DNA of 32,429 nt, taken from the IMG/VR virus record IMGVR_UViG_2531839528_000015; one strand, written 5' to 3'. The notes under the pieces were generated by a model that did not search any database, was not told where the DNA came from, and saw only the letters and a program-made list of their open reading frames with translations. Source of the stretch: a virus (Duplodnaviria > Heunggongvirae > Uroviricota > Caudoviricetes). Positions 453 through 25,965 of this stretch are shown piece after piece; the first letter of the stretch is position 1; every line of letters starts with the position of its first letter. A program made the position numbers and the translations under genes.

Positions 453-1262
453 GTGTCAAAAAAGGATACAATCCAGATTATCGATATCAGGATGCAGAGA
501 CCAATCATAGCAAGAATAGAAGAAGAAAATTTAAATTTGACATTGCAAATGTCAGATAAAGCCACATTATCTGGTGCGACAGTTAGTTTTTTCACCCCAA
601 ATAACGTTTCTATATTCTTATCCTCAGCAAAAAAAGAGCTCTCAAAATCCAATTCTATATATAAAAGTCTTTTTGGAAAAATACACAAAACCAAACATAA
701 AAACTTTAAAATTTCCGACAAAGACCTGCCGAGACTCTATAATTACTTTGAATCAATTCAGACGGCCATTATTTCTATGTATACTGCAATTGAGTCTTTT
801 GCAAATATATGCATACCACATGATTATGTTTATGAAAAAAACAATGCCAAGGGAATCAAAGAATCCTATAGCAAAGAGCTAATTGAGCGATATATACCAA
901 CAAGTGAAAAAATAGATAAAATCCTACCGTCTATTTTAAATTGTGATTCGCCTAAAGGTTCAAAACTATGGCAAGATTTTAAAAGCCTTGAGTCACTTAG
1001 AAATGACATAATTCACCCCAAGACAACAAAGAAAAACACAGAAACAAAAGAAGACTCATCTTTTTTATGCATTTTACTATCAGATGACTTTATAAAAAAA
1101 GTTTCCTGTGGATTTGATTTGGTATCTTATTTTTGCAAACAAGACACTACTCATAGTCTTTTCCCAATGGGTTTCGGTGAAATTGAACTTAAACCTGTCC
1201 CAATTAAAGCCGGTGACTTTGAAAAAGTTGATGATCATGATGAAATAGAATTACCATCATAA
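453..1262 (+). CDS. Hypothetical AT-rich accessory protein next to the integrase 3' end, with a possible HEPN-like Rx4H motif
   Basis: ORF-track frame 417..1262 opens with TTG. An in-frame GTG at 453 is preceded by GGAG at 443-446, so 453 is the preferred start; the first in-frame ATG is at 492. Translation is Lys/Asn/Ile-rich, unlike the backbone. Motif R-N-D-I-I-H at residues 195-200 (nt 999-1016). Confidence 0.5.
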   Translation: MSKKDTIQIIDIRMQRPIIARIEEENLNLTLQMSDKATLSGATVSFFTPNNVSIFLSSAKKELSKSNSIYKSLFGKIHKTKHKNFKISDKDLPRLYNYFESIQTAIISMYTAIESFANICIPHDYVYEKNNAKGIKESYSKELIERYIPTSEKIDKILPSILNCDSPKGSKLWQDFKSLESLRNDIIHPKTTKKNTETKEDSSFLCILLSDDFIKKVSCGFDLVSYFCKQDTTHSLFPMGFGEIELKPVPIKAGDFEKVDDHDEIELPS

Positions 1263-2441: not shown

Positions 2442-2780
2442 TTATTCCCAAAGTGCTGTTGCAGCATCCATTACAGGATCCAAAGGAATTTTTACGCCTG
2501 CATACTCCGGGCTATCTTTCCAAACAGTATCAATATTGCTCCCCTCAAGCTTTCCAGACTTTACTCCATCAATCGCAAAACCATTTAATGGGTATCGGTC
2601 ATCTGTTGCTTTGTCGTACACAAAGGCATATTTACCGTTGACACAAGACACCGTAGCTTTTTCAAAAGTTAACGGCCAATCCTCACCAAACTTAGCGCCA
2701 TCTAAATCCTGTGTTTTTTCAGCGGCTGAGGCTCCAAAAGAAAGGGTAAGAAGCAGAGCTAAAAAGAGTTTACATTTCAT
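2442..2780 (-). CDS. Small secreted or periplasmic protein (moron), possibly DUF2511/YebY-like
   Basis: The track ORF 2442..2852 overlaps the repressor gene. The internal Met at 2778-2780 begins a typical signal peptide MKCKLFLALLLTLSFGASAA, and a mature domain of about 90 aa follows. The YebY resemblance is from memory only. Confidence 0.55.
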   Translation of the reverse strand: MKCKLFLALLLTLSFGASAAEKTQDLDGAKFGEDWPLTFEKATVSCVNGKYAFVYDKATDDRYPLNGFAIDGVKSGKLEGSNIDTVWKDSPEYAGVKIPLDPVMDAATALWE

Positions 2781-2788
2781 AATGTCCC

Positions 2789-3649
2789 TTACACGTGTTT
2801 TTCCAATGTGAAAACTACAGCCCCGGCAGGAGTAATGTCTGTAATGTTGCATTCAAACTCAGCAGACTTATTTGACAACCTGACTTTTCCACCGGGCAAG
2901 CGAATTACATCAAAAACATCAAGAGCGCCGTCGATATCAATTAACCAGCGACCATTACTTATATTCGAAGCAGAACAGTCGACAAGCCAAGAGGCAGCTA
3001 CACCGTCAACAAAAATCAATTCCCCTGAGTTAGAAGGAATCATTGAGGGGTCAGGATGCCACGTTCCTGCATCCTTAAGCTCACCAGATTCAAGACGAGA
3101 TTTTTTAATAGAAAAACCAGATGTGACATCTTCCCTGTTAGCTCGCATTTGCCCCTTGCCTGTTGCTAACCATTCCAGTGACGTATCGGTATCAAGAGCG
3201 CATGTAACAACAACATCACCAGGGAAAAAATCTCGCCTTACCCATGTGCTAATTGTGCCAGAGGAAATGCCGAGCAAATCACCGAGCTCCTTTTGCATGG
3301 TAAAGCCATACGCATCAAGAATCCTACGCAAAACGGTTTTACCACCATTCGTCATAATCTCGTCATAAAGCTCTTTGCCTTTTAACTTGCAACTGGCTCG
3401 CTCGTGATTTGCATTTGCAAGTTCTCCATTTACAAGCCAATTGATATCAGCTCCCGTGTCAAGACAACACCTAACTATGACATTGCCAGGTATTGCATCA
3501 CGCTGAACCCAGCCGCTAACGCTGTGTTTAGCGATACCTAGCAGGTCAGCCAAATCCTTTTGCATCTTGACCCCATAGGCTGACATTAAGCGTTCCAATA
3601 CGCCGTTCGTTGCACTAACACGCCACTGAACATCAAGCTCAGAACTCAT
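2789..3649 (-). CDS. cI: Phage 186-type CI repressor with tandemly duplicated N-terminal HTH domain
   Basis: 286 aa. Two internally repeated segments align: GVLERLMSAYGVKMQKDLADLLGIAKHSVSGWVQRDAIPGNVIVRCCLDTGADINWLVNGE and TVLRRILDAYGFTMQKELGDLLGISSGTISTWVRRDFFPGDVVVTCALDTDTSLEWLATGK. They are followed by a CI C-terminal-like domain. No S24 peptidase Ser/Lys motifs recognised. Divergent from the apl-like gene. Confidence 0.8.
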   Translation of the reverse strand: MSSELDVQWRVSATNGVLERLMSAYGVKMQKDLADLLGIAKHSVSGWVQRDAIPGNVIVRCCLDTGADINWLVNGELANANHERASCKLKGKELYDEIMTNGGKTVLRRILDAYGFTMQKELGDLLGISSGTISTWVRRDFFPGDVVVTCALDTDTSLEWLATGKGQMRANREDVTSGFSIKKSRLESGELKDAGTWHPDPSMIPSNSGELIFVDGVAASWLVDCSASNISNGRWLIDIDGALDVFDVIRLPGGKVRLSNKSAEFECNITDITPAGAVVFTLEKHV

Positions 3650-5711: not shown

Positions 5712-7934
5712 TTGGCTGTTCAATTCGCTTATCCGTGGAACGTCCCACGGTCGGCAATCTCCAGCCCATACCTTACTTATGAGCAACAGCATCGCCGCGA
5801 CCGTATGTTCGCGGCTTTGCTGCATGCAAAAAAGGTGCTTTCTCTCCAGCCCGACTGCGTGCGGTTAGATGTTTATCGCACTGCTGCGGTGCTGGAACAA
5901 AATCAGGGTAGTCAACGAGCCAATGCATTTTTAATCAGCTTCTGCAAAAAGGCATTGCCGCGTCTTGAACTGGTCGCAAAAAAATACGAATGCGCTGGTA
6001 TCAACAGCAAGGTATCAACCGCTGTTTTTGGAAGTCATTTTGATACTCAGCAAATGCAATATCTGTCGTCACGCATGGTTAATATGGTCGCCCGATATAA
6101 CCGTCTCCCGGACATGTCGCGCGCTGATGTTGACCTGTTGGCCGCTGATATTGCTAATTTCATTCGTGGTGAACTTGCCAACATTAATGACCACGGATTC
6201 GGCGAGCTTAAAACGCTGTACACCTGGTATATTCGTGCTGGCTTTATTTCCCTCCAATTCAACGTTATCCCACCACATTGGGAGCGGGTTGAAAAAAAAT
6301 ATGTCGGTGCGGATGAAATCGCACCGGCTATCGCCAAAATGTTTAACGATGGGTGGTGGCGCGGTCGTTTGCGCCGTGTAGCAGCTACGTGGCGCGAACA
6401 CCTGCAAATTGCAGTCGGCAACGTCAGTAAGAAAAAAAACACTTACGCGAGTAAAAACTGCGTGACTGACTGGCGTGAACAAAAGCGCCGCACTCGTGAA
6501 TTTCTCAAAGGTCTGGATCTCGAAGACGAAGACGGCAACCGTATCAGCCTAATTGAAAAATATGATGGCTCAGTTGCTAACCCTGCGATTCGCCGCTGTG
6601 AGCTCATGACCCGCATTCGTGGGTTTGAAAACATCTGTAATGAGCTCGGTTATGTCGGTGAGTTTTACACTCTAACCGCGCCGTCAAAATATCACGCCAC
6701 GACTAAAGCCGGTTACCGTAACAGCAAATGGAGCGGTGCCAGCCCGGCTGACACGCAAAACTATCTAACCGGTATCTGGGCGCGTATCCGTGCCAAACTA
6801 CATCGGGAAGATGTCCGTATTTTCGGTATTCGTGTCGCCGAGCCCCATCACGACGGCACTCCACACTGGCACATGCTGATGTTCATGCTGCCGGAAGATG
6901 TTGAATATGTTCGCTCCATCGTCCGTAAATACGCATGGAAAGAAGACCGCCACGAACTGAAAAGCGATAAATCCCAAAAAGCACGTTTCCACGCGGAGTC
7001 CATTGACCCGGAGAAAGGCAGCGCAACCGGCTATGTTGCTAAATACATTTCAAAAAATATCGACGGTTATGCTCTCGATGGTGAAACCGATGATGAAAGC
7101 GGTGAGCTGCTGAAAGAGACAGCCCCCGCCGTTTCAGCATGGGCTGCGCGCTGGCACATCCGTCAGTTTCAGTTTATTGGTGGTGCGCCGGTGACGGTTT
7201 ACCGTGAGTTGCGTCGCCTCGCTGATACCGAAACCGCGCACGGTCTGAGCGTTGAGTTTGCCGCCGTCCATGATGCCGCCGACGCTGGTGACTGGGCTGG
7301 TTATGTTAATGCTCAGGGTGGGCCGTTTGTCCGTCGCGATGATTTACAGGTGCGCACACTGTATGAACCGCGTACCGAGCTTAATCAGTACGGTGAGGAA
7401 ACGGTATGTATTAAGGGGGTCTACGATTCCTCCATAGGTGCAGGAAGCCCGATTTTAACCCGGCTCACTCAGTGGAAGATTGTTCCGAAGCGTGCTGTTG
7501 ATTTGGCCGTTGACCTTCAGGACGGCAAAGCCGTCCCTCGGAGTTCTGTCAATAACTGTACGGGAAGCGAAAGCGATCCACCGATACTGGATTTAACAAA
7601 ACCACTGAGTCGGCGTGAAAGACGAGAATTGACCAACCGACTCAGGAAGCAAAAGCCAGCAGCACGGCGAAAATTCATCCACGGAACGGATGAGCAAAAC
7701 GCAGCTATAGCTAAAACTATCGATGAGATACATCTGACAACCGGCATTAATATCAGCCGGGGCGAAGCCCTGCACCTGATGGCCGGTGGTAAAAGTTGTT
7801 TTGATGGTAAATGGCTACGCGGAACGGCCAAAGGAGAAATATTTTCCGCAGCACCATCGCATGAGGCTAAAGCTCGGAAAATCCTTAATCGTGTTGCGGC
7901 GATGGCTGAAGCATCAAAACCAATACATGAGTAA
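5712..7934 (+). CDS. A: Replication initiation endonuclease (P2 gpA-like, rolling circle)
   Basis: 740 aa. HWHMLMF motif and the tyrosine pair in YVAKYISKNIDGY. TTG start at 5712 with GGGGG at 5701-5705, tightly coupled to the upstream stop. Confidence 0.88.
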   Translation: MAVQFAYPWNVPRSAISSPYLTYEQQHRRDRMFAALLHAKKVLSLQPDCVRLDVYRTAAVLEQNQGSQRANAFLISFCKKALPRLELVAKKYECAGINSKVSTAVFGSHFDTQQMQYLSSRMVNMVARYNRLPDMSRADVDLLAADIANFIRGELANINDHGFGELKTLYTWYIRAGFISLQFNVIPPHWERVEKKYVGADEIAPAIAKMFNDGWWRGRLRRVAATWREHLQIAVGNVSKKKNTYASKNCVTDWREQKRRTREFLKGLDLEDEDGNRISLIEKYDGSVANPAIRRCELMTRIRGFENICNELGYVGEFYTLTAPSKYHATTKAGYRNSKWSGASPADTQNYLTGIWARIRAKLHREDVRIFGIRVAEPHHDGTPHWHMLMFMLPEDVEYVRSIVRKYAWKEDRHELKSDKSQKARFHAESIDPEKGSATGYVAKYISKNIDGYALDGETDDESGELLKETAPAVSAWAARWHIRQFQFIGGAPVTVYRELRRLADTETAHGLSVEFAAVHDAADAGDWAGYVNAQGGPFVRRDDLQVRTLYEPRTELNQYGEETVCIKGVYDSSIGAGSPILTRLTQWKIVPKRAVDLAVDLQDGKAVPRSSVNNCTGSESDPPILDLTKPLSRRERRELTNRLRKQKPAARRKFIHGTDEQNAAIAKTIDEIHLTTGINISRGEALHLMAGGKSCFDGKWLRGTAKGEIFSAAPSHEAKARKILNRVAAMAEASKPIHE

Positions 7935-8008
7935 TTCATATCCATATCATGCACATACAGCAATCGCTCTATTCGTTTTTTTTCTTCCCATCTTTTGCCA
8001 ATACGTGC

Positions 8009-8662: not shown

Positions 8663-8872
8663 ATGCATCGACTACCGGGCGAAATTCCGCAGCACAAAAC
8701 TAAAAGCATCAAACTGATGGCCATCGTTCATCGTCTGCAGCAGATAATGGTCAATGAGAATTTGACACCCGCCGAGCTGGTCGGGTGTGCCGAAATAGTC
8801 AGGGATAATTACGGCAAGCTGGATAGCATCAGCAAGCCGACACATTACTCACCGCCACCACGTCGACCATAG
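8663..8872 (+). CDS. Hypothetical small protein (cassette between the two repeats)
   Basis: 69-aa ORF with GAGGG seven nt upstream of the ATG. Confidence 0.45.
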   Translation: MHRLPGEIPQHKTKSIKLMAIVHRLQQIMVNENLTPAELVGCAEIVRDNYGKLDSISKPTHYSPPPRRP

Positions 8873-9005: not shown

Positions 9006-9200
9006 ATGCAAAATCCCCTTTCATCGAAAAATGACCCGTTTGCCGATTGGGCAAAGAATCTGACTTTAATGGCTTTAAATAACGACCTGAGCTCTCGCGA
9101 GGTGGAAAGCTACACCGCAAAAATGGTCGGGCAGGCCGGTAAAGATGAGCTATCAGTCGTTATCAAACACCTGTTAAATCACATCAGAATGCGCAAATAA
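9006..9200 (+). CDS. Hypothetical small protein
   Basis: Track ORF 8916..9200 starts inside repeat 2. The internal ATG at 9006 with GAGG upstream is more plausible (MQNPLSSKNDPFADWAKNL...). Confidence 0.4.
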   Translation: MQNPLSSKNDPFADWAKNLTLMALNNDLSSREVESYTAKMVGQAGKDELSVVIKHLLNHIRMRK

Positions 9201-9366: not shown

Positions 9367-9526
9367 ATGCCATTTTTCCGCGAATTTCCCGTTTTTTAGT
9401 CGTGCATGCATCAGGTGCATGGTTTTGCATGCGTCAGTCTTGCCCGTTCTGTCCGTGCGCCGCCAGAGCTAGCGCGGATCCAGAGTTGTCATGCAACTGC
9501 ATTAAAACCGCCCCATAAAGCGGGCA

Positions 9527-9545
9527 GGCGTGGCGGGGAAAGCAT
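9527..9545. other. cos site (19-nt cohesive-end sequence, P2/186 type)
   Basis: ggcgtggcggggaaagcat matches the P2/186 cohesive-end sequence as I remember it (P2: GGCGAGGCGGGGAAAGCAC). It lies in a roughly 400-bp noncoding stretch. Confidence 0.6.
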
Positions 9546-9764
9546 TGCGCGCCAGCAGTGATGCGTAATAATAAAAATTATCCTCTGAGCGCGTCGTGAT
9601 GGCGCTGTCGTGGTCGCTGCTGGTTCGTTGGTGGTCGAGTGTGTTCGTGCGCGTGAGACGCATCTGATGCGTGATGGTGGTGTGCATGGAAAAGCCACCA
9701 GGAGCAGCGGCTTTACAGGAGTGGCAGGATTCAAACTGCTAATTATGTTTCTACTATGATTAAA

Positions 9765-10769
9765 CTAATTTACATGTATGTAGAGTTCACCGTCGCCAGA
9801 CCAATCGGGACACTCTAAAACAAGCCCAAACTGCTTGAATATTTCATCAATGATTATTGTTATCTCCCGAAAATCACCAAAACCTGTAATGTGCTGGTCA
9901 TTAAACTTCCCATAAAGATTCTGAAAAGCAATGCCTAATTCTGATAATTGATATCTTATCTTTGAGTTGGATAGTGTAAGGGATAGCTTTGGATCGTATT
10001 CTTTAATATTGATGTTTAGAGAATGGACATAACCCATCGCATAAGCATAAGAGTTGATGATTAGCCTGATACGTTTTTTTACTTCAAGATACATGTCATT
10101 CAGAGAAATATTACCGTACTTATAACCCCAGATGAGTTTTTCAATCTCGTCAGATACTTCATTTACAACAGTGTCAAGATTCTCTAAAAATAAATCGACA
10201 GTTTCTTGAGGGGCAGACCCCGAAGACATGTAATTAGCGAGATATTCAGACCATGCACGCGTGGCTGAGATAAGAAGCGCGCTACCATACTCGTTGACTG
10301 TAAAGTTTTGGGCTAAGCATGTTAGTAAGTTTTTTTCATGTACGTGCACTAATTCATGGTGAATGCGATGGATGACTGCGAGGTATCCTTCTTCTTTCAG
10401 TTTTAAGAAGCTACCATCATTGAAAAGCTCAACAAAAAAATCAATCGATAGCACAAGGGTATATTCTTCATATAGCCCATCATTGCCAATTTTTGTTACT
10501 AACTGCCCGACGGCTGCGCCCTGTTTGCTATTGGTAAATGAACTAGGGGATTTGTGTTGGTAAGAGGATGTTACCTTTTGAAGAGCTTCACTGAAGTTAT
10601 AGGAAACAATCACGCATTTTAATTTGGAGATATCAAGATTGAGATTCTTTGTTAAAGCTCGGATAGCTTCTAGTGTGAAATTACCGATATTATTTGCTTC
10701 TTGCTCAGTAGCGAAACCTTCGAGGGTTATTTTAAAATCAGTTTCCAAAATATTAATCTCCGCGCCCAT
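9765..10769 (-). CDS. Hypothetical AT-rich 334-aa protein with an HExxH motif, between cos and Q (candidate defence or exclusion cargo)
   Basis: ATG at 10767-10769. Asn/Ile/Leu/Glu-rich translation. HRIHHELVHVHE at residues 134-145 (nt 10344-10358). No Walker A motif and no transmembrane segment seen. Confidence 0.7.
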   Translation of the reverse strand: MGAEINILETDFKITLEGFATEQEANNIGNFTLEAIRALTKNLNLDISKLKCVIVSYNFSEALQKVTSSYQHKSPSSFTNSKQGAAVGQLVTKIGNDGLYEEYTLVLSIDFFVELFNDGSFLKLKEEGYLAVIHRIHHELVHVHEKNLLTCLAQNFTVNEYGSALLISATRAWSEYLANYMSSGSAPQETVDLFLENLDTVVNEVSDEIEKLIWGYKYGNISLNDMYLEVKKRIRLIINSYAYAMGYVHSLNINIKEYDPKLSLTLSNSKIRYQLSELGIAFQNLYGKFNDQHITGFGDFREITIIIDEIFKQFGLVLECPDWSGDGELYIHVN

Positions 10770-10787
10770 TGTTTTGATATTCGATGC

Positions 10788-10816
10788 ACTATAGCTTTCG
10801 CAGATTGCATCTTCAA
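10788..10816 (-). promoter_or_regulatory. Candidate sigma70 promoter for the 334-aa gene
   Basis: On the minus strand: -35 TTGAAG (complement of 10811-10816), 17-bp spacer, -10 TATAGT (complement of 10788-10793). It lies in the 78-bp gap below the Q stop. Confidence 0.4.
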
Positions 10817-10846
10817 TAATGAGCGCAGAGATTGTGGCGGCCTAAG

Positions 10847-11893
10847 TTATTCTGGGTTGTCGAGGGTGTACTCTTTGAATCTGATGACCTCCATGCCGAG
10901 CCAGTCATTTACCTCCCTGAACCTGTCCTGTAGCGGCGACAGCTCGTTGCGCACAAATACCTTTGCCACCTTCTCAACATCACCGAGTGAACCGATATTC
11001 TCGGGCTTGCCGCCCATGAGCTGGAACGGTACGCGGTGCGCGTCCATCAGATCGGCGGCACTGGCCTTCTTGATGTTGAAAAAGTCATCCTTTGTGGCGA
11101 CCTCGCTCAGTGGCACGATTTTGATGCCGTCCGGTTTTCCGCCGGGAGCGTAGAAAAACAGGTTCTTAAAGTTGCCGAGCCCTTTTGAGTTGCGCATCGC
11201 CTCGCGCAGCGATTCGACGTCGGTCGCGCTCTGCGCCGGGTCAGTCACATACATGATGTAGCCTGCGTGCGCGCCGTTCTGATAATACTTGCGGCGGAAC
11301 AGCGTCGCGGATTCATTCAGCCAAGCGGAATTAAGCGCGCTGAGATATTCCGGCAGACCGTAAATCTCCTGATTAATGTCGGGCTCCAGCAGGTGAAACA
11401 CGGTATCAGGCGCGAACTCGTGCGGCTGGGTGAAGTTTTCCACAAACCAGAAAATCGAATCGTCGACTCCGCGTCGGGTGTATTTGGCTGGCGAGGCCAG
11501 CAGTTTGATTAACTGGCCGGTGACGCTGTGGCGCTGCTCAAGAAAGGCGTTACCGAACACCAGATAATCGAGCGCAAAGCGGCTGAAATCCTGACGGGAT
11601 AACAACGGGTGCGGAATGTAGGTGCTCGCGAGCACGTTACGCTTAACATAAATTGGCGAGCTGTGATGCACGGCAGAGCGCAGGCTCTTTGCCAGCCCTG
11701 AGAAGCTGACCGGCGGCTCGTACCATTTGCCGTTACTGATGCACTCGACGTAATCCAGAATGTCGCGCTTATCGAGTACCGGCACCGGCTCGCCGAAGGT
11801 GAACGCTGTCGTTTTTGGCGGTGCGCTGGCGGTCAGTTGTTGTGGTTTGCTGGCCTTTTGTGCGTTGGCTTTACGGGATTTTTGTTTACCCAT
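10847..11893 (-). CDS. Q: Portal protein (P2 gpQ-like)
   Basis: 348 aa, the size and position of P2 Q, adjacent to and co-oriented with the large terminase. Confidence 0.9.
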   Translation of the reverse strand: MGKQKSRKANAQKASKPQQLTASAPPKTTAFTFGEPVPVLDKRDILDYVECISNGKWYEPPVSFSGLAKSLRSAVHHSSPIYVKRNVLASTYIPHPLLSRQDFSRFALDYLVFGNAFLEQRHSVTGQLIKLLASPAKYTRRGVDDSIFWFVENFTQPHEFAPDTVFHLLEPDINQEIYGLPEYLSALNSAWLNESATLFRRKYYQNGAHAGYIMYVTDPAQSATDVESLREAMRNSKGLGNFKNLFFYAPGGKPDGIKIVPLSEVATKDDFFNIKKASAADLMDAHRVPFQLMGGKPENIGSLGDVEKVAKVFVRNELSPLQDRFREVNDWLGMEVIRFKEYTLDNPE

Positions 11894-11894
11894 T

Positions 11895-13664
11895 TTAGTT
11901 GAACTCCAGAATAGATTTAGGCTGCATGCCGCTACCGGCAGAAAGCGGTTCGTTTAACAGGGCGTGCATGGTCGCCCATGCGATATCGGCGTGGCTGGCT
12001 TCCTCGGTGCGGCTGGCCTCATAGGTGGCGCAGCGCCCGCTGCTGGTCATGGTTTTGCGGATGGACATAAACGACTGCGTGACGTCGGTTGCTCCGGCGT
12101 CGTACTCCAGACAGCCACGGCGAATGGTGTCTTTCGCCTTGAGTACCATTGCGGTTTTCATTTCAGGTGTGTAACGGATGCCGCGTGCCGCCGGGTAAAA
12201 TGAGCGCACCAGCTGGAACACGCCGAGACCGAGGCCGGTTGCGTCAATGCCGATGTATTCGACGTTGTATTTCTCGGTCAGCTTGCGGATGCCCTCTGCC
12301 TGTGCTGCAAAATCCATGCCCTTCCACTGGTGGCGCTCCAGCATGCGGAACTTGCCACCAGAGACCACCGGCGGCGCGAGCACGACGCACCCGGCACTGT
12401 CGCCGGTGTGTGACGGGTCGTAGCCAATCCAGACAGGACGAGAGCCGAACGGATGGTCGGCGAACGGGGCAAAGTCCTCCCATTCCTCCATCACATCGAC
12501 CATGCAGCGCTGCAGCTCCTCGAACGGGAATACCGACGCTTTATCGTCGACAAACTCGCACATAAACAGGTTCTTAAAGTCCTCATCACTGTTTTCGCGT
12601 TTGAGCTGGTCGAGGTCGAACAGGGTGCAGCCACCCGCAAGGGCGTCCTCAATGGTGACAATCTGCCGCCACTGGCCATCGTCGCAGAGCTGGCCACCGG
12701 CGAGCGCGCTGTGACTGATGTCGATTTCGATGCGGTCGGCAATCCGGCTGCGCCCCTTGTTGAACAGCTCGCCAGACCAGAAGGGGTAAGCGCCGTGCGC
12801 CAGCGTGGAAGGTGTCGAAAAATAGGTCGAGCGCAGGTGCTTTTGCGAGGCCATGCCCGAGGCGACTTTGCGCAGTTTCTGAAAATTCGGGATCCAGAAT
12901 ATTTCATCGACATACAGATCGCCGTTATGGCTCTGCGCGGTGTTGGAATTGGTACCGAGAAAAATCAGTTTTGCGCCGTTGTTACCGATGACAATCGGGT
13001 CGCCAGTCAGGTCAACGTCGACCAGTCGCGCAAACTGGATGATGTATTCGCGGAACACGTAAGCCTGCGTTTTACTGGCTGATAAAAATATCTGGTTATG
13101 GCCGGTTTTGAGTGCGCGCAGCAGTGCCTCGCGGGAGAAATAGAATGTCGCGCCAATCTGGCGGGATTTGAGAATGTCACGAATACGGTGCTCCAGTCCT
13201 GCGCGGTACCACTGCAACTGGTACTCGAAAGACTGGTCGAAAAATAATTCCTCTAGTTTATCGATAGCCTCGTCGCTGAAAAAATTCTTTTTCGGCTTTT
13301 TGCGCTCCCCTTTGTTGCGGTTGGCGACGTTGGGGTTAAGGTCGGCTTCGTTGCCGGTCTGGCTGTAGCGGTTGACTCGCGCCAACCGTTCAATCTGCCG
13401 TCCGAGCAGGTCAATCTCTTTGAAATCACCCCCTGTCTTTTGCGGCTTGGCGATGAGCTGAATCAGCCTGGCCTCAAGGCTGCTTTCAACGCGGGAAATC
13501 GGCGCGATGCCGTCCCAGCCGTCGCGCTGCTTCCAGCTCTGCACGGTCGGGCGCTTGACCTGCAGCATTTCGGCAATCTGTGGCACGGAAAAACCCTGCC
13601 AGTAAAGCAGCGATGCCTGCCGTCGCGGGTCATGCAACAAGGTTGTATCGGTGGAAATGGTCAT
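11895..13664 (-). CDS. P: Terminase large subunit (P2 gpP-like)
   Basis: 589 aa, the size and position of P2 P, divergent from the capsid operon. Confidence 0.9.
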   Translation of the reverse strand: MTISTDTTLLHDPRRQASLLYWQGFSVPQIAEMLQVKRPTVQSWKQRDGWDGIAPISRVESSLEARLIQLIAKPQKTGGDFKEIDLLGRQIERLARVNRYSQTGNEADLNPNVANRNKGERKKPKKNFFSDEAIDKLEELFFDQSFEYQLQWYRAGLEHRIRDILKSRQIGATFYFSREALLRALKTGHNQIFLSASKTQAYVFREYIIQFARLVDVDLTGDPIVIGNNGAKLIFLGTNSNTAQSHNGDLYVDEIFWIPNFQKLRKVASGMASQKHLRSTYFSTPSTLAHGAYPFWSGELFNKGRSRIADRIEIDISHSALAGGQLCDDGQWRQIVTIEDALAGGCTLFDLDQLKRENSDEDFKNLFMCEFVDDKASVFPFEELQRCMVDVMEEWEDFAPFADHPFGSRPVWIGYDPSHTGDSAGCVVLAPPVVSGGKFRMLERHQWKGMDFAAQAEGIRKLTEKYNVEYIGIDATGLGLGVFQLVRSFYPAARGIRYTPEMKTAMVLKAKDTIRRGCLEYDAGATDVTQSFMSIRKTMTSSGRCATYEASRTEEASHADIAWATMHALLNEPLSAGSGMQPKSILEFN

Positions 13665-19721: not shown

Positions 19722-20597
19722 CTAGCCTCGTAAATATCGTTTAGTAAATTTCGTGTTTGGTCTGGATGATAGGATTTGTCTTTCTATTTCACTATCACAG
19801 TCTATATAGTCTAGTGTATTAGCTTCTATAAGTTTGTTCACGTCAATATTTTTTGCATCGATTATGTTGGCATTTCTAAGGTTTGCATTGGTGTATTCCA
19901 CTTTATCCAAATCACACTCTCTGAGTACGCAACTTTTCATTTCCGCATTGGAAAAATCCCCACCATATAAATAGCAGCCTTCAAAAATAACACCGTTTAA
20001 CTTTGAATCCTGAGCTTTAATATTTTTTATTTTACACTTTATAAATTTTACGTTTTTCATTTTGCTCTTGCTAATATTTAATGCCTGGATTGTACATCCA
20101 GTGAAAGAACAGTCTCTTATGTTAGATTTTTCCATATTTAACCCAGATAGTTCTGAGGTTTTAAAGTGTAAGTATTTAATGGTAAAAAGGTCACCCAACT
20201 CCATTCTGGGTATGTCTATATTGAAGACACCTTTATTGTTGAGCTGTCTTATTATTTTTATTTTTTGTATTTTCAAATCAACATTAACGTGCTTAGCTAA
20301 GTTTCCCAAATCCTCAAGAAGTTCATTAATCGTTTCTTTGTTTTGTCTTCTGTATTCAAAGTAATAAAGGATGACACCTAATACAAAAAAATCCAAAATG
20401 GATGAATTTGCATTTATTAGGAACCCAGACAGGAATGAATCATTGTAATTACCATAGTGTATAGAGGCAAGTGTTACGCCAAATGCATATAAAATAAAAA
20501 TAATAAACACGTGCTTCATTTTGCATAAGGATTGTATTATTGGTTTTATGGCATCAATTTTGTTCATTGCTGCAGCAGCGAAAGATTTAAAAGTCAT
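19722..20597 (-). CDS. Membrane-anchored pentapeptide-repeat protein (AT-rich moron at the P2 orf30 position between S and V)
   Basis: 291 aa. Two hydrophobic helices (VFIIFILYAFGVTLASI and ILDFFVLGVILYYF), then pentapeptide-repeat-like sequence (NISKSKMKNVKFIKCKIKNIKAQDSKLNGVIFEGCYLYGGDFSNAEMKSCVLRECDLDKVEYTNANLRNANII). Opposite strand to both neighbours. Confidence 0.7.
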   Translation of the reverse strand: MTFKSFAAAAMNKIDAIKPIIQSLCKMKHVFIIFILYAFGVTLASIHYGNYNDSFLSGFLINANSSILDFFVLGVILYYFEYRRQNKETINELLEDLGNLAKHVNVDLKIQKIKIIRQLNNKGVFNIDIPRMELGDLFTIKYLHFKTSELSGLNMEKSNIRDCSFTGCTIQALNISKSKMKNVKFIKCKIKNIKAQDSKLNGVIFEGCYLYGGDFSNAEMKSCVLRECDLDKVEYTNANLRNANIIDAKNIDVNKLIEANTLDYIDCDSEIERQILSSRPNTKFTKRYLRG

Positions 20598-24200: not shown

Positions 24201-24635
24201 GTGTTTTTTAGTCCATCTTTAAATATTTTTGTGAATCCTGCGCTTAAGGATGACTACATCAATGTAAATTCATGGCCAGATGATGCTGTTGAAGTTGATG
24301 AGCAGGTGTATATTGAGTTTTCCGGATTACCGCCGAAAGGAAAAATCCGTATCGCTGGGGAAAATGGTTTTCCTGCATGGTCTGAAATTCCACCACCAAC
24401 GCATGAGGAACAGATTGCCGCAGCCGAATTGAAAAAACAGCAATTGATTAATCAGTCCAACGAATATATGAATACCAAGCAATGGCCTGGTAAAGCGGCT
24501 ATTGGTCGTCTGAAAGGTGAGGAACTGGCGCAATATAATTTGTGGCTGGATTATCTGGACGCACTGGAACTGGTTGATACCTCCAGTGCTCCAGATATTG
24601 AATGGCCTACGCCTCCGGCAGTTCAGGCCAGATGA
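24201..24635 (+). CDS. Tail fibre assembly chaperone (Tfa, P2 gpG-like)
   Basis: GTG start with GGAGGG upstream. C-terminus ...LDYLDALELVDTSSAPDIEWPTPP matches the C-terminus of the convergent Tfa'. Confidence 0.8.
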   Translation: MFFSPSLNIFVNPALKDDYINVNSWPDDAVEVDEQVYIEFSGLPPKGKIRIAGENGFPAWSEIPPPTHEEQIAAAELKKQQLINQSNEYMNTKQWPGKAAIGRLKGEELAQYNLWLDYLDALELVDTSSAPDIEWPTPPAVQAR

Positions 24636-25200
24636 TATCCGGCGCGGTGCTGGTATCTGTTGCCGTCACCGCGTCAATGTAATCCAGCACGGCGTTAAGT
24701 CGGGTTGTTTCTGCCTGAGTCAGTTTCCGTCCGGCCTGTAATTTCAGCTGAATCAGACTGATGGAAGCCATTGCAGCATCAATCAGTGACTGGCGCTGTG
24801 CTTCTGCCGCTTCTACTGCGGCACCGTGTTGTGCCTCAGTATCTGTCACCCATTTCTCACCATCCCATTTATCATATGGCGTTAACGGTGAAATCGTGAC
24901 ATAACCGTCTTTGATGGCACCGATATAATCCACTGTAACAGCTGCGCCATTTTCGATTAAGTAAACAGTCTCATTGCGATGGTCTTCTTCATGGCTCCAT
25001 CCCTTACCTGTAAATACTGCCACTCTTCCCGGAATGTTTTCGCCAGGGTCAATACCAGTGGAACAGGCGGGCATACTTACGCCAGTATTAATATATTCAT
25101 CAGACCAGCCCGTATACTCAGATGTTTCAGCATCATAATAAAAACAACGCATATCGCCCGGCACTGTAGCCAGCCCATTTTCATCAAAAACAGGTTTCAT
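24607..25200 (-). CDS. Alternative tail fibre assembly chaperone (Tfa') in the inverted orientation
   Basis: 197 aa. C-terminus ...LDYIDAVTATDTSTAPDIIWPELP. Converges on and overlaps the Tfa 3' end. Confidence 0.75.
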   Translation of the reverse strand: MKPVFDENGLATVPGDMRCFYYDAETSEYTGWSDEYINTGVSMPACSTGIDPGENIPGRVAVFTGKGWSHEEDHRNETVYLIENGAAVTVDYIGAIKDGYVTISPLTPYDKWDGEKWVTDTEAQHGAAVEAAEAQRQSLIDAAMASISLIQLKLQAGRKLTQAETTRLNAVLDYIDAVTATDTSTAPDIIWPELPEA

Positions 25201-25652
25201 TATTTAGCCCTCACCAGAAAGTTAAATGCAATATTTCGCGGTCTGACAGCAACAAAATTCACACCATCACCCACAGAGTTACTGGTGAAATTAAATCGTG
25301 AAAATCCTGGCTGATTTCCGGCGATGCCATCATGAAAGTTAATTGCGTGTCCCGCACCTCCGCCTATATTCCCGGCAAACTGAGAAAAGTTTGTAGCTTC
25401 CTGCCAGCTTAATAATTCGCGACCACCGTCTGCACCTCGCCCGTCATCCCAGATACGAATGAAATCACCGCGGGCTTCAGGTAATACCAGCGAAGGAAAC
25501 ACTTTCGCCAGCACAGGATAATCAGTGGCAGAGAATTTCGCGCCGTTGAACTTCAAAAACACCATACTGGACCAGCTGTCGATTACAGTATTTGGCATTG
25601 CAGCGGACGGCCAGAAGAACGGAACGCCAATAGCTGGAGCACCTTCTCCCAA
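25200..25652 (-). CDS. Silent alternative tail-fibre C-terminal segment (Hv')
   Basis: 150-aa frame with no ATG (the track start is TTG). It opens LGEGAPAIG directly inside crossover site 2, and an in-frame stop lies just upstream, so it is expressed only after inversion. Confidence 0.7.
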   Translation of the reverse strand: MGEGAPAIGVPFFWPSAAMPNTVIDSWSSMVFLKFNGAKFSATDYPVLAKVFPSLVLPEARGDFIRIWDDGRGADGGRELLSWQEATNFSQFAGNIGGGAGHAINFHDGIAGNQPGFSRFNFTSNSVGDGVNFVAVRPRNIAFNFLVRAK

Positions 25653-25670
25653 ACCAACCTTTTAGAAAAC
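25645..25670. other. Candidate invertase crossover site 2, inverted relative to site 1
   Basis: Reverse complement gttttctaaaaggttggtttgggagaa matches site 1 at about 21 of 27 positions. Central dinucleotide is AA on the + strand. Confidence 0.55.
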
Positions 25671-25723
25671 GCAGATATTCCGTTCAGCTGGCATGATCCC
25701 GACTTTTTACCGGGTTATTTCTC

Positions 25724-25965
25724 ATGTTTATCGGTTATGTACGTGTATCAACAAATGACCAGAACACCGCATTACAGCGAAATGAACTGGAGTGCGCAGG
25801 ATGTGAGCTGATTTTCGAAGATAAAATCAGCGGCAAAACATCAGACTGGCCGGGCTAAAGAGGTTACTCAGAACCTTGTCAGAGGGCGATACGCTTGTGG
25901 TCTGGAAACTGGATCGCCTCGGGTATCTCAACGCTATACAAAAAATTTCCCGCATCCGTTGCTGA
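25724..25965 (+). pseudogene. Serine DNA invertase (Hin/Gin/Cin/Pin family) remnant, frameshifted and C-terminally truncated
   Basis: ATG 25724 gives MFIGYVRVSTNDQNTALQRNELECAGCELIFEDKISGKTSDWPG, then TAA at 25856. A second frame continues GDTLVVWKLDRLG to TGA at 25963-25965. The HTH domain is missing, and only about 80 of the expected 190 residues are present. Confidence 0.75.

Follow-up and report, generated by a model that had tools for sequence, protein, structure and literature searches.

A cos-proximal cargo gene of P2-like prophages is predicted to encode a zincin-fold metallohydrolase and is a candidate for phage exclusion

We analyzed a 32,429-nucleotide stretch of viral DNA (IMG/VR record IMGVR_UViG_2531839528_000015; hereafter the window), which is a P2-like prophage of the 186/PSP3 type and matches the prophage of Escherichia coli JKHS016 identically. 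Between its cos sequence and its portal gene Q lies an AT-rich gene (9765..10769, minus strand), here called the cargo gene. The protein that it encodes is predicted to be a cytoplasmic metallohydrolase of the zincin fold, expected to bind a metal and to act as a peptidase, and the distribution of the gene supports its being an alternative, exchangeable cargo rather than part of the phage backbone. The explanation that we favor, while holding it somewhat short of an even chance, is that the product is a Lit-like, trigger-activated cytoplasmic metalloprotease that would exclude competing phages. A role in defence is a well-motivated hypothesis, for which the gene is a candidate. What is new here is the family; the fold, the hotspot and the style of the proposed mechanism are already known.

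The cargo protein contains a single HExxH motif, H138-E139-L-V-H142 (HELVH, residues 138-142), whose codons occupy 10344..10358 on the minus strand and which lies within a conserved block, HxxHHELxHVH(E/D). An earlier reading of the window, made from sequence only, had named this motif as the one recognisable feature of the protein, and it was confirmed as invariant across the family. Conservation was assessed in two alignments, the first comprising 30 family members down to 42% identity and the second 63 members of the superfamily at about 20% identity. The positions that are invariant in the first include H137, H138, E139, H142, E145, N147, W173, S174, E175, Y176, A178 and N179. In the broader alignment E139, H142 and A178 are present in all 63 sequences, H138 and E175 in 62 and W173 in 58, and the HExxH is intact in 62. 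The positions that follow the motif are also well kept, with H144 in 53 and D or E at 145 in 58 of the 63. Because the three motif residues do not vary within the family, and the motif is nearly universal in the superfamily, HELVH is not a chance occurrence. Sequence conservation and the predicted fold together support its being a genuine zincin active-site signature.

An AlphaFold2 model built with the family alignment (pLDDT 90.2, pTM 0.89) predicts an N-terminal subdomain of beta-sheet and helix, a helix at residues 126-148 that carries the HExxH, a helix at 160-185, and a C-terminal helical bundle at 188-313. The predicted catalytic domain has a thermolysin-like fold, and the fold matches favor peptidase families M1, M30 and M9. 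In the model E175 lies on the helix next after the HExxH helix, within the segment W173-S-E175-Y-L-A178-N179 (codons 10233..10253, minus strand), and is the proposed third metal ligand, of the gluzincin type; E/D145 is an alternative candidate. A structure prediction followed by Foldseek had been proposed as a means of placing the protein. The prediction proved confident; the Foldseek comparison gave no significant match in the PDB and, in BFVD, one marginal match, the best hit, labelled 'Peptidase'. The gluzincins of clan MA(E) include the M1 aminopeptidase catalytic domain, M30 lugdulysin, M9 collagenase and M4 thermolysin. The cargo protein differs from these in having no sequence-level membership in any Pfam or PDB family, an H-to-E spacing of 32 residues, a further conserved H-x-H-(D/E) that follows the motif and a different helical bundle at the C-terminus, and in being cytoplasmic and stand-alone. 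On sequence and model combined, we conclude that the cargo family is new, stands far from the known ones, and combines the gluzincin scaffold with a conserved HExxH...E signature.

The additional conserved residues after the motif, H144 and D/E145, would also suit a metal-dependent hydrolase that uses the zincin scaffold on a non-protein substrate, such as a small molecule or, as YbeY does, RNA. YbeY, however, lacks the general-base Glu of the HExxH, which every one of the 63 superfamily members retains, and the best structural matches of the cargo protein are peptidases. We regard a non-protein substrate as improbable.

Searches for a name were largely unproductive. The cargo protein had no match in Pfam, NCBIfam or PADLOC v2.0 (in PADLOC, 0 families at E <= 10), and the sole match in any family library was to PHROG 11743, 'unknown function'. 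Searches of PDB sequences, by phmmer and with two profiles, returned coiled-coil noise only. The Pfam, NCBIfam and PHROG searches likewise gave no confident match to a packaging or structural protein. The gene is not the orphan that it had been taken for. A word-indexed search recovered 78 clusters at 90% identity, all 'hypothetical' and reaching down to 42% identity, from Escherichia, Salmonella, Citrobacter, Klebsiella, Serratia, Pectobacterium, Enterobacter, Yersinia, Kosakonia, Shewanella and Psychromonas. An exhaustive profile search extended this to 355 representatives at 50% identity, most of them single-domain proteins of 305-340 amino acids. A genome scan based on the 30-member alignment detected a relative in 12 of about 185,000 species-representative genomes. 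By sequence, the cargo protein is thus assigned to an unnamed family of predicted cytoplasmic proteins.

The cargo open reading frame (ORF) encodes 334 amino acids if read from ATG at 10769, or 327 if read from TTG at 10748; the former agrees in coordinates and strand with the 334-residue ORF first described between cos and Q. The TTG is the likelier start, because a GGAG (10761..10758) precedes it by a 9-nucleotide spacer (probable ribosome-binding site and start at 10746..10761, minus strand, with TTG at 10748..10746), because the aligned position is the start of most homologs, and because the RefSeq coding sequence, of 984 nucleotides, begins at this codon too. We therefore consider that the protein probably has 327 residues. 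The dN/dS ratio of the gene is 0.24 against the Salmonella copy and 0.31 against the Citrobacter copy, and the ORF is therefore a gene under purifying selection. Its GC content, 0.34-0.40 as against 0.51-0.61 in Q and P (approximately 0.38 for the ORF and 0.56 for the prophage backbone), bears out the compositional contrast noted at the outset. No transmembrane segment or signal peptide was found, the maximum 19-residue Kyte-Doolittle mean being 1.19, and a secreted or membrane toxin was rejected on these grounds; the N-terminal extensions of relatives are acidic and also lack transmembrane segments and signal peptides. The Walker A motif [AG]xxxxGK[ST] is absent from the protein and no Pfam domain was matched, in accord with the earlier view that this is not an Old-like ATPase. 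A nuclease of the OLD family, which combines Walker A and Toprim, was rejected for the same reasons, leaving the cargo protein neither an ATPase nor a nuclease of that kind.

The distribution of the gene is sporadic. It occurs in 1 of 50,697 phage records, that of vB_EcoM-613R3, and in 26 of 5,426 complete E. coli genomes, with one chromosomal copy in each; PSP3, 186 and the Yersinia phages lack it. It is accordingly far from being a constant gene of P2-like phages. Sixty-eight E. coli genomes share the cos/Q junction type of the window, and the cassette is held by 26 of these, the remaining listed junctions being empty or occupied by a small DUF2188 gene. One DUF2188 sister prophage has an identical portal protein (WP_000517961.1) and the same genes on the gpA side of cos. 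This variable presence among similar prophages is what the sequence-only reading had anticipated in proposing an alternative cargo at the locus. A packaging or structural core gene was ruled out by the sporadic distribution together with the clean insertion described below.

Copies of the gene outside E. coli occupy the same site. In Salmonella a 90%-identical copy is found in the same slot on at least 1,000 contigs, and in IMG/VR all 12 of 12 close copies have the order P-Q-gene-cos. Among close prophages the identities of portal and cargo proteins are uncoupled, for example 99% for the portal and 87-91% for the cargo. Two very divergent P2-like phages in IMG/VR, whose terminase, portal and gpA are respectively 38-40%, 33-35% and 41% identical to those of the window, carry an AT-rich homolog of 51-56% identity in the same place and orientation. 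The uncoupled identities, and the recurrence of the gene in one slot of divergent phages, indicate that the cassette moves independently of the backbone yet returns to a single locus.

The A side of cos varies separately. In the window it carries two ORFs of 69 and 64 amino acids (8663-8872 and 9006-9200, both plus strand), neither of which matched Pfam. An additional gene of 313 amino acids (WP_001622299; 2084-3025, minus strand, in locus L014), likewise unmatched in Pfam, is present there in strains 222 and SF-468 and in phage 613R3; as a partner of the cargo gene it was ruled out, being absent from the window. The Salmonella copies have unrelated genes of 243 and 198 amino acids on this side. 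The DUF2188 gene that takes the place of the cargo gene in sister E. coli prophages is found in locus L030 at 2636-2947 (plus strand), and another lies two genes from the Enterobacter homolog of the cargo gene, with a resolvase gene between them (locus L006, 6711-6938, minus strand); the presence of DUF2188 near both contexts may be coincidence or may reflect a shared pool of cargo.

Comparison with PSP3 by blastn places the limits of the insertion. Window 9527-9713 corresponds to PSP3 1-188, which comprises cos and the hairpin after Q, and window 10847-11100 corresponds to PSP3 198-451, position 198 being the Q stop codon. From these break-points, an AT-rich cassette of 1,133 bp (9714..10846, minus strand), reaching from the Q stop codon to the terminator, substitutes for 9 bp of PSP3. 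The 19-nucleotide cohesive-end sequence (9527..9545, plus strand) is of the 186/PSP3 type and equals PSP3 positions 1-19, annotated 'cos; identical to 186 cos', so that the cos assigned earlier is correct. The gpA gene ends at 7934. On the other side, Q (10847..11893, minus strand; Pfam Phage_portal; RefSeq 'phage portal protein') lies directly upstream of the cargo gene and co-oriented with it, and the terminase gene P (11895..13664, minus strand) is on the same strand as both. The gap between Q and the cargo ORF measures 77 bp, one less than first given. An ORF of 61 amino acids (9502-9687, minus strand) that spans cos and the late-operon terminator is recorded in RefSeq as a 'hypothetical protein' (WP_000557532.1) and is also present in 613R3; it is probably a spurious gene call, PSP3 being annotated there only with cos at 1-19.

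The intrinsic terminator of the P-Q late operon has been kept (9684..9708, minus strand; a 9-bp stem followed by UUUU). It is orthologous to the PSP3 hairpin directly after Q and has a folding energy of -11.7 kcal/mol, compared with -15.9 in PSP3. No terminator was found between Q and the cargo ORF, and the 77-bp gap has no stable structure (z = +0.28). Since the cargo ORF precedes the ancestral terminator of Q, it is also within the late P-Q transcription unit, and the sequence indicates that it can be transcribed by read-through of the late operon. The gap also holds a candidate sigma70-like promoter, TTGAAG-17-TATAGT (10788..10816, minus strand; 9/12 match), whose hexamers are the same in the copies from Salmonella, Citrobacter and Escherichia sp., where neighboring bases differ. 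Thus a plausible promoter is present, as had been suggested, and its hexamers are conserved; sigma70-like sites are, however, not enriched over shuffled sequence (5 vs 3.5 +/- 1.8), and late read-through is equally supported. Transcription from a promoter of its own is possible in addition to read-through.

These features bear on whether the protein might serve the phage itself, as a late-expressed protease co-transcribed with P and Q in lytic growth. Such a protease could act in counter-defence, on a host defence or stress protein, or against a P4 satellite or a co-infecting P2 relative. The position of the cassette upstream of the retained terminator, with neither terminator nor stable structure after Q, is consistent with this, as is the orientation of the gene, which in phage contexts is always that of Q. 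A divergent viral contig (L042) offers a further example: its gene order is P-Q-ogr-zincin with overlapping stop and start codons, the ogr gene (7639-7965, plus strand) encoding an Ogr/Delta zinc-finger late activator, and gpA begins about 130 bp past the zincin homolog, which is therefore the sole cargo of that hotspot. Several observations argue in the other direction. The conserved sigma70-like hexamers would permit independent expression; the cargo genes already known from the locus, among them old and tin, serve defence; homologs occur also in non-phage chromosomal islands near Shedu, TIR and AbiO; and relatives are fused to an effector of the abortive-infection (Abi) type, an ADP-ribosyltransferase (ART). 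On balance we consider a late-expressed protease of this kind rather unlikely.

The locus itself lends weight to a function in conflict. Experiments on other cargos have established the interval between gpA and gpQ in P2-like phages as a hotspot of defence genes (Rousset et al. 2022, PMC9122126; Vassallo et al. 2022, PMC9519451), which agrees with the earlier characterisation of the A-to-Q region, and the cargo gene falls within it as defined (PMC9122126), between gpA and gpQ beside cos. Its cargo includes the defensive genes old and tin and others (PMC9122126). Like old, tin and the other cargos of the interval, the cassette is cos-proximal, AT-rich, sporadic and limited to one or few genes; it differs from old and tin in position, as these are on the A side of cos, whereas the cassette lies on the Q side, where it separates the stop codon of Q from its terminator. 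In Table S5 of the Rousset study (PMC9122126) the cargo protein (WP_001622301) appears as an unannotated 'hypothetical' with varying neighbors.

Outside P2-like phages the homologs lie in variable regions, some of them with neighbors of a defensive kind. The Colwellia homolog adjoins a TIR gene, with Shedu SduA 5 kb away; a Bacillus relative has AbiO/Nhi at a distance of 3 kb; a homolog in an Alteromonadaceae metagenome-assembled genome is flanked by DpdF-like and other helicases; the Kosakonia homolog, at the edge of a prophage, has a YafO toxin next to it; and the Shewanella homolog is beside a NERD gene. The association is suggestive rather than strong. In Enterobacter (63% homolog) and Serratia (59% homolog) a gene for a serine recombinase (resolvase), at 7116-7685 of locus L006 and 7042-7614 of locus L010 (both minus strand), precedes the homolog by about 300-400 bp and is divergent from it. 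Outside phages the gene may thus belong to a mobile unit associated with a resolvase. An obligate partner gene was ruled out, as the neighbors differ in each context; the intervening gene of L042 (orf108) is the Ogr/Delta backbone regulator.

An accessory 'moron' gene with no part in phage conflict would also be at home in such a permissive site. The product would then be a cytoplasmic peptidase or regulator of host physiology, acting in stress response, protein turnover or toxin-like growth control. The hotspot does house cargo that is not defensive, most neighborhoods of the homologs lack a recognisable defence gene, and one of the fusion proteins described below is encoded among metabolic genes. 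Against this, sporadic exchange independent of the backbone resembles the behavior of a conflict gene, the homologs are associated with resolvases, integrases and toxins, and the ART fusions point to conflict. We judge a purely physiological role unlikely.

In six proteins of 588-601 amino acids, with 30-39% mutual identity, an entire DUF2971 domain precedes an entire copy of the domain of the cargo family; one such fusion is from Kiloniella majae. DUF2971 has a DarT-like ADP-ribosyltransferase fold (PMC12522546), and one protein with this domain, Aristaios, has been validated as an abortive-infection system of a single gene (PMC11381338). The DUF2971 part of the fusions matches PADLOC PDC-S31, the class of Aristaios, and among the relatives it is only this fused part that does so; the cargo protein of the window has no ART domain itself. 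In five of the six fusions the catalytic residues of the zincin-like domain have been replaced (H138 by R or K, E139 by H or A, H142 by R, and E175 by A, D or R), while the scaffold residues W173, Y/F176, G246 and G315 are mostly retained. One of the fusions is encoded between an integrase and an AlpA gene. Three close DUF2971 relatives (P0248, P0249 and P0252) have C-terminal TPR repeats in place of the zincin-like domain, which suggests interchangeable C-terminal sensor modules on a DUF2971 ART effector.

The decay of the active site in five of the six fusions, set against its invariance in the stand-alone members, fits a binding scaffold in which catalysis is needed only where the domain is the sole effector. 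The scaffold thus probably has a binding or regulatory role that outlasts catalysis, the domain in the fusions serving as sensor or regulator, and stand-alone members, in which no other domain could act as effector, presumably keep their catalytic residues for that reason. By their sequences the fusions would link the scaffold to a validated class of Abi effectors. That the scaffold persists with a destroyed active site might also be taken to mean that the cargo protein is a non-catalytic binder, or pseudo-peptidase, which for example sequesters a phage or host protein. Yet the catalytic residues are essentially invariant in stand-alone members even at about 20% identity, and we hold this to be very improbable.

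A broader scheme would unite these observations by treating the zincin scaffold as a sensor module, put to use more than once, that detects a protein of a phage or a satellite. A member that stands alone would be sensor and effector in one protein, and the decayed clade would gate the fused DarT-like ART. In P2-like phages the gene would form a tripwire in the late operon, trans-activated by a superinfecting P2 relative or by P4, with exclusion of kin or satellites as the result and not a general shield of the lysogen. We offer this as a speculation that is quite unlikely to hold in full.

The closest analog of the cargo protein is Lit of prophage e14 (Peptidase U49, 'cell death peptidase Lit'). 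Lit lies dormant until a phage peptide activates it; it then cleaves a translation factor, and the infection is aborted. Both proteins are cytoplasmic, prophage-borne, single-gene products of about 300 amino acids with one HExxH, and the contexts of the motif are similar (ILHHEISHV in Lit, RIHHELVHV in the cargo protein). They differ in that the cargo protein matches neither Pfam U49 nor PADLOC Lit and resides in another host element at another insertion site. Peptidases of the ImmA/IrrE/CapP group (M78) are likewise cytoplasmic HExxH proteins of phages and defence loci, and one distant member of the cargo family gave a weak capP match (E 0.005). An ImmA/IrrE (M78) regulator was rejected, as there is no Peptidase_M78 match and no adjacent helix-turn-helix gene in the window or in the Salmonella, Enterobacter, Serratia, Kosakonia and Shewanella loci.

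By analogy with Lit, the cassette would encode a stand-alone, gluzincin-like zinc metallopeptidase carried as exchangeable cargo in the cos-proximal gpA-gpQ hotspot. The protein would be harmless in the lysogen until its helical scaffold recognised a protein of an invading phage. Cleavage of an essential host or phage protein at the HExxH/Glu175 site would follow, and infection by the competitor would be blocked through exclusion or abortive infection. The anti-phage role, the dependence on a trigger and the nature of the substrate are steps that we infer from this analogy.

A number of observations weigh against such an exclusion protease. Homology to Lit was rejected: hhalign of the superfamily alignment with K-12 Lit gave a probability of 15.8%, over 18 columns around the HExxH only. 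That H138, H142 and E175 converge on one site is a proposal. No named defence family was matched, as the sequence-only reading had reported and as the PADLOC search upheld. About 10 of 14 non-P2 homolog loci are without clear defence neighbors, which about 4 of 14 have, and one fusion, as noted, sits among metabolic genes. The placement in the late operon suggests expression in the phage's own lytic cycle, which is not strictly needed for protection of a lysogen. The hotspot also carries partition systems and a CDT toxin, which are not defensive (PMC9122126), and WP_001622301 is in none of the other supplementary tables of the same study, including that of tested systems (PMC9122126). The literature searched made no mention of the cargo protein, and searches on metallopeptidases in defence and on accessions found nothing relevant.

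If the cargo protein is an anti-phage protease, it would represent a second, unrelated family among the few abortive-infection or exclusion systems that consist of a protease only, with Lit as the textbook example. P2 hotspots now yield candidate defence genes frequently, and this one is distinguished by an unusually clean anatomy and by the split between enzyme and pseudoenzyme. The contrast between the enzyme and the decayed fusions suggests a modular sensor scaffold and could aid the reading of other unannotated defence genes. Experimental handles are available in the four catalytic residues, in the natural sister prophages with an empty slot or DUF2188 as controls, and in the inducible phage vB_EcoM-613R3. 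As the gene is common in P2-like prophages of Salmonella, a phenotype, if true, would be relevant to phage typing and phage therapy in enteric bacteria.

Three other regions of the prophage may be noted. A second AT-rich island (19722-20597, minus strand; GC 0.30-0.34, with flanks of about 0.56-0.61) encodes a pentapeptide-repeat protein of 291 amino acids. It sits between virion-morphogenesis and tail genes and the baseplate gene V, on the strand opposite to its neighbors, and looks like a further cargo slot. The region 25200-25923, with the adjoining 24201-25200, contains oppositely oriented tail-fibre-assembly genes, an N-terminally truncated fragment of a tail protein and a frameshifted recombinase pseudogene; the whole (24201-25923) looks like the remnant of an invertible tail-fibre switch of host range, with a dead invertase. 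Finally, just past the integrase end of the prophage, a hypothetical gene of 269 amino acids (453-1262, plus strand) with a GC content of about 0.32 and no Pfam match is either part of the host flank or a further, att-proximal cargo.

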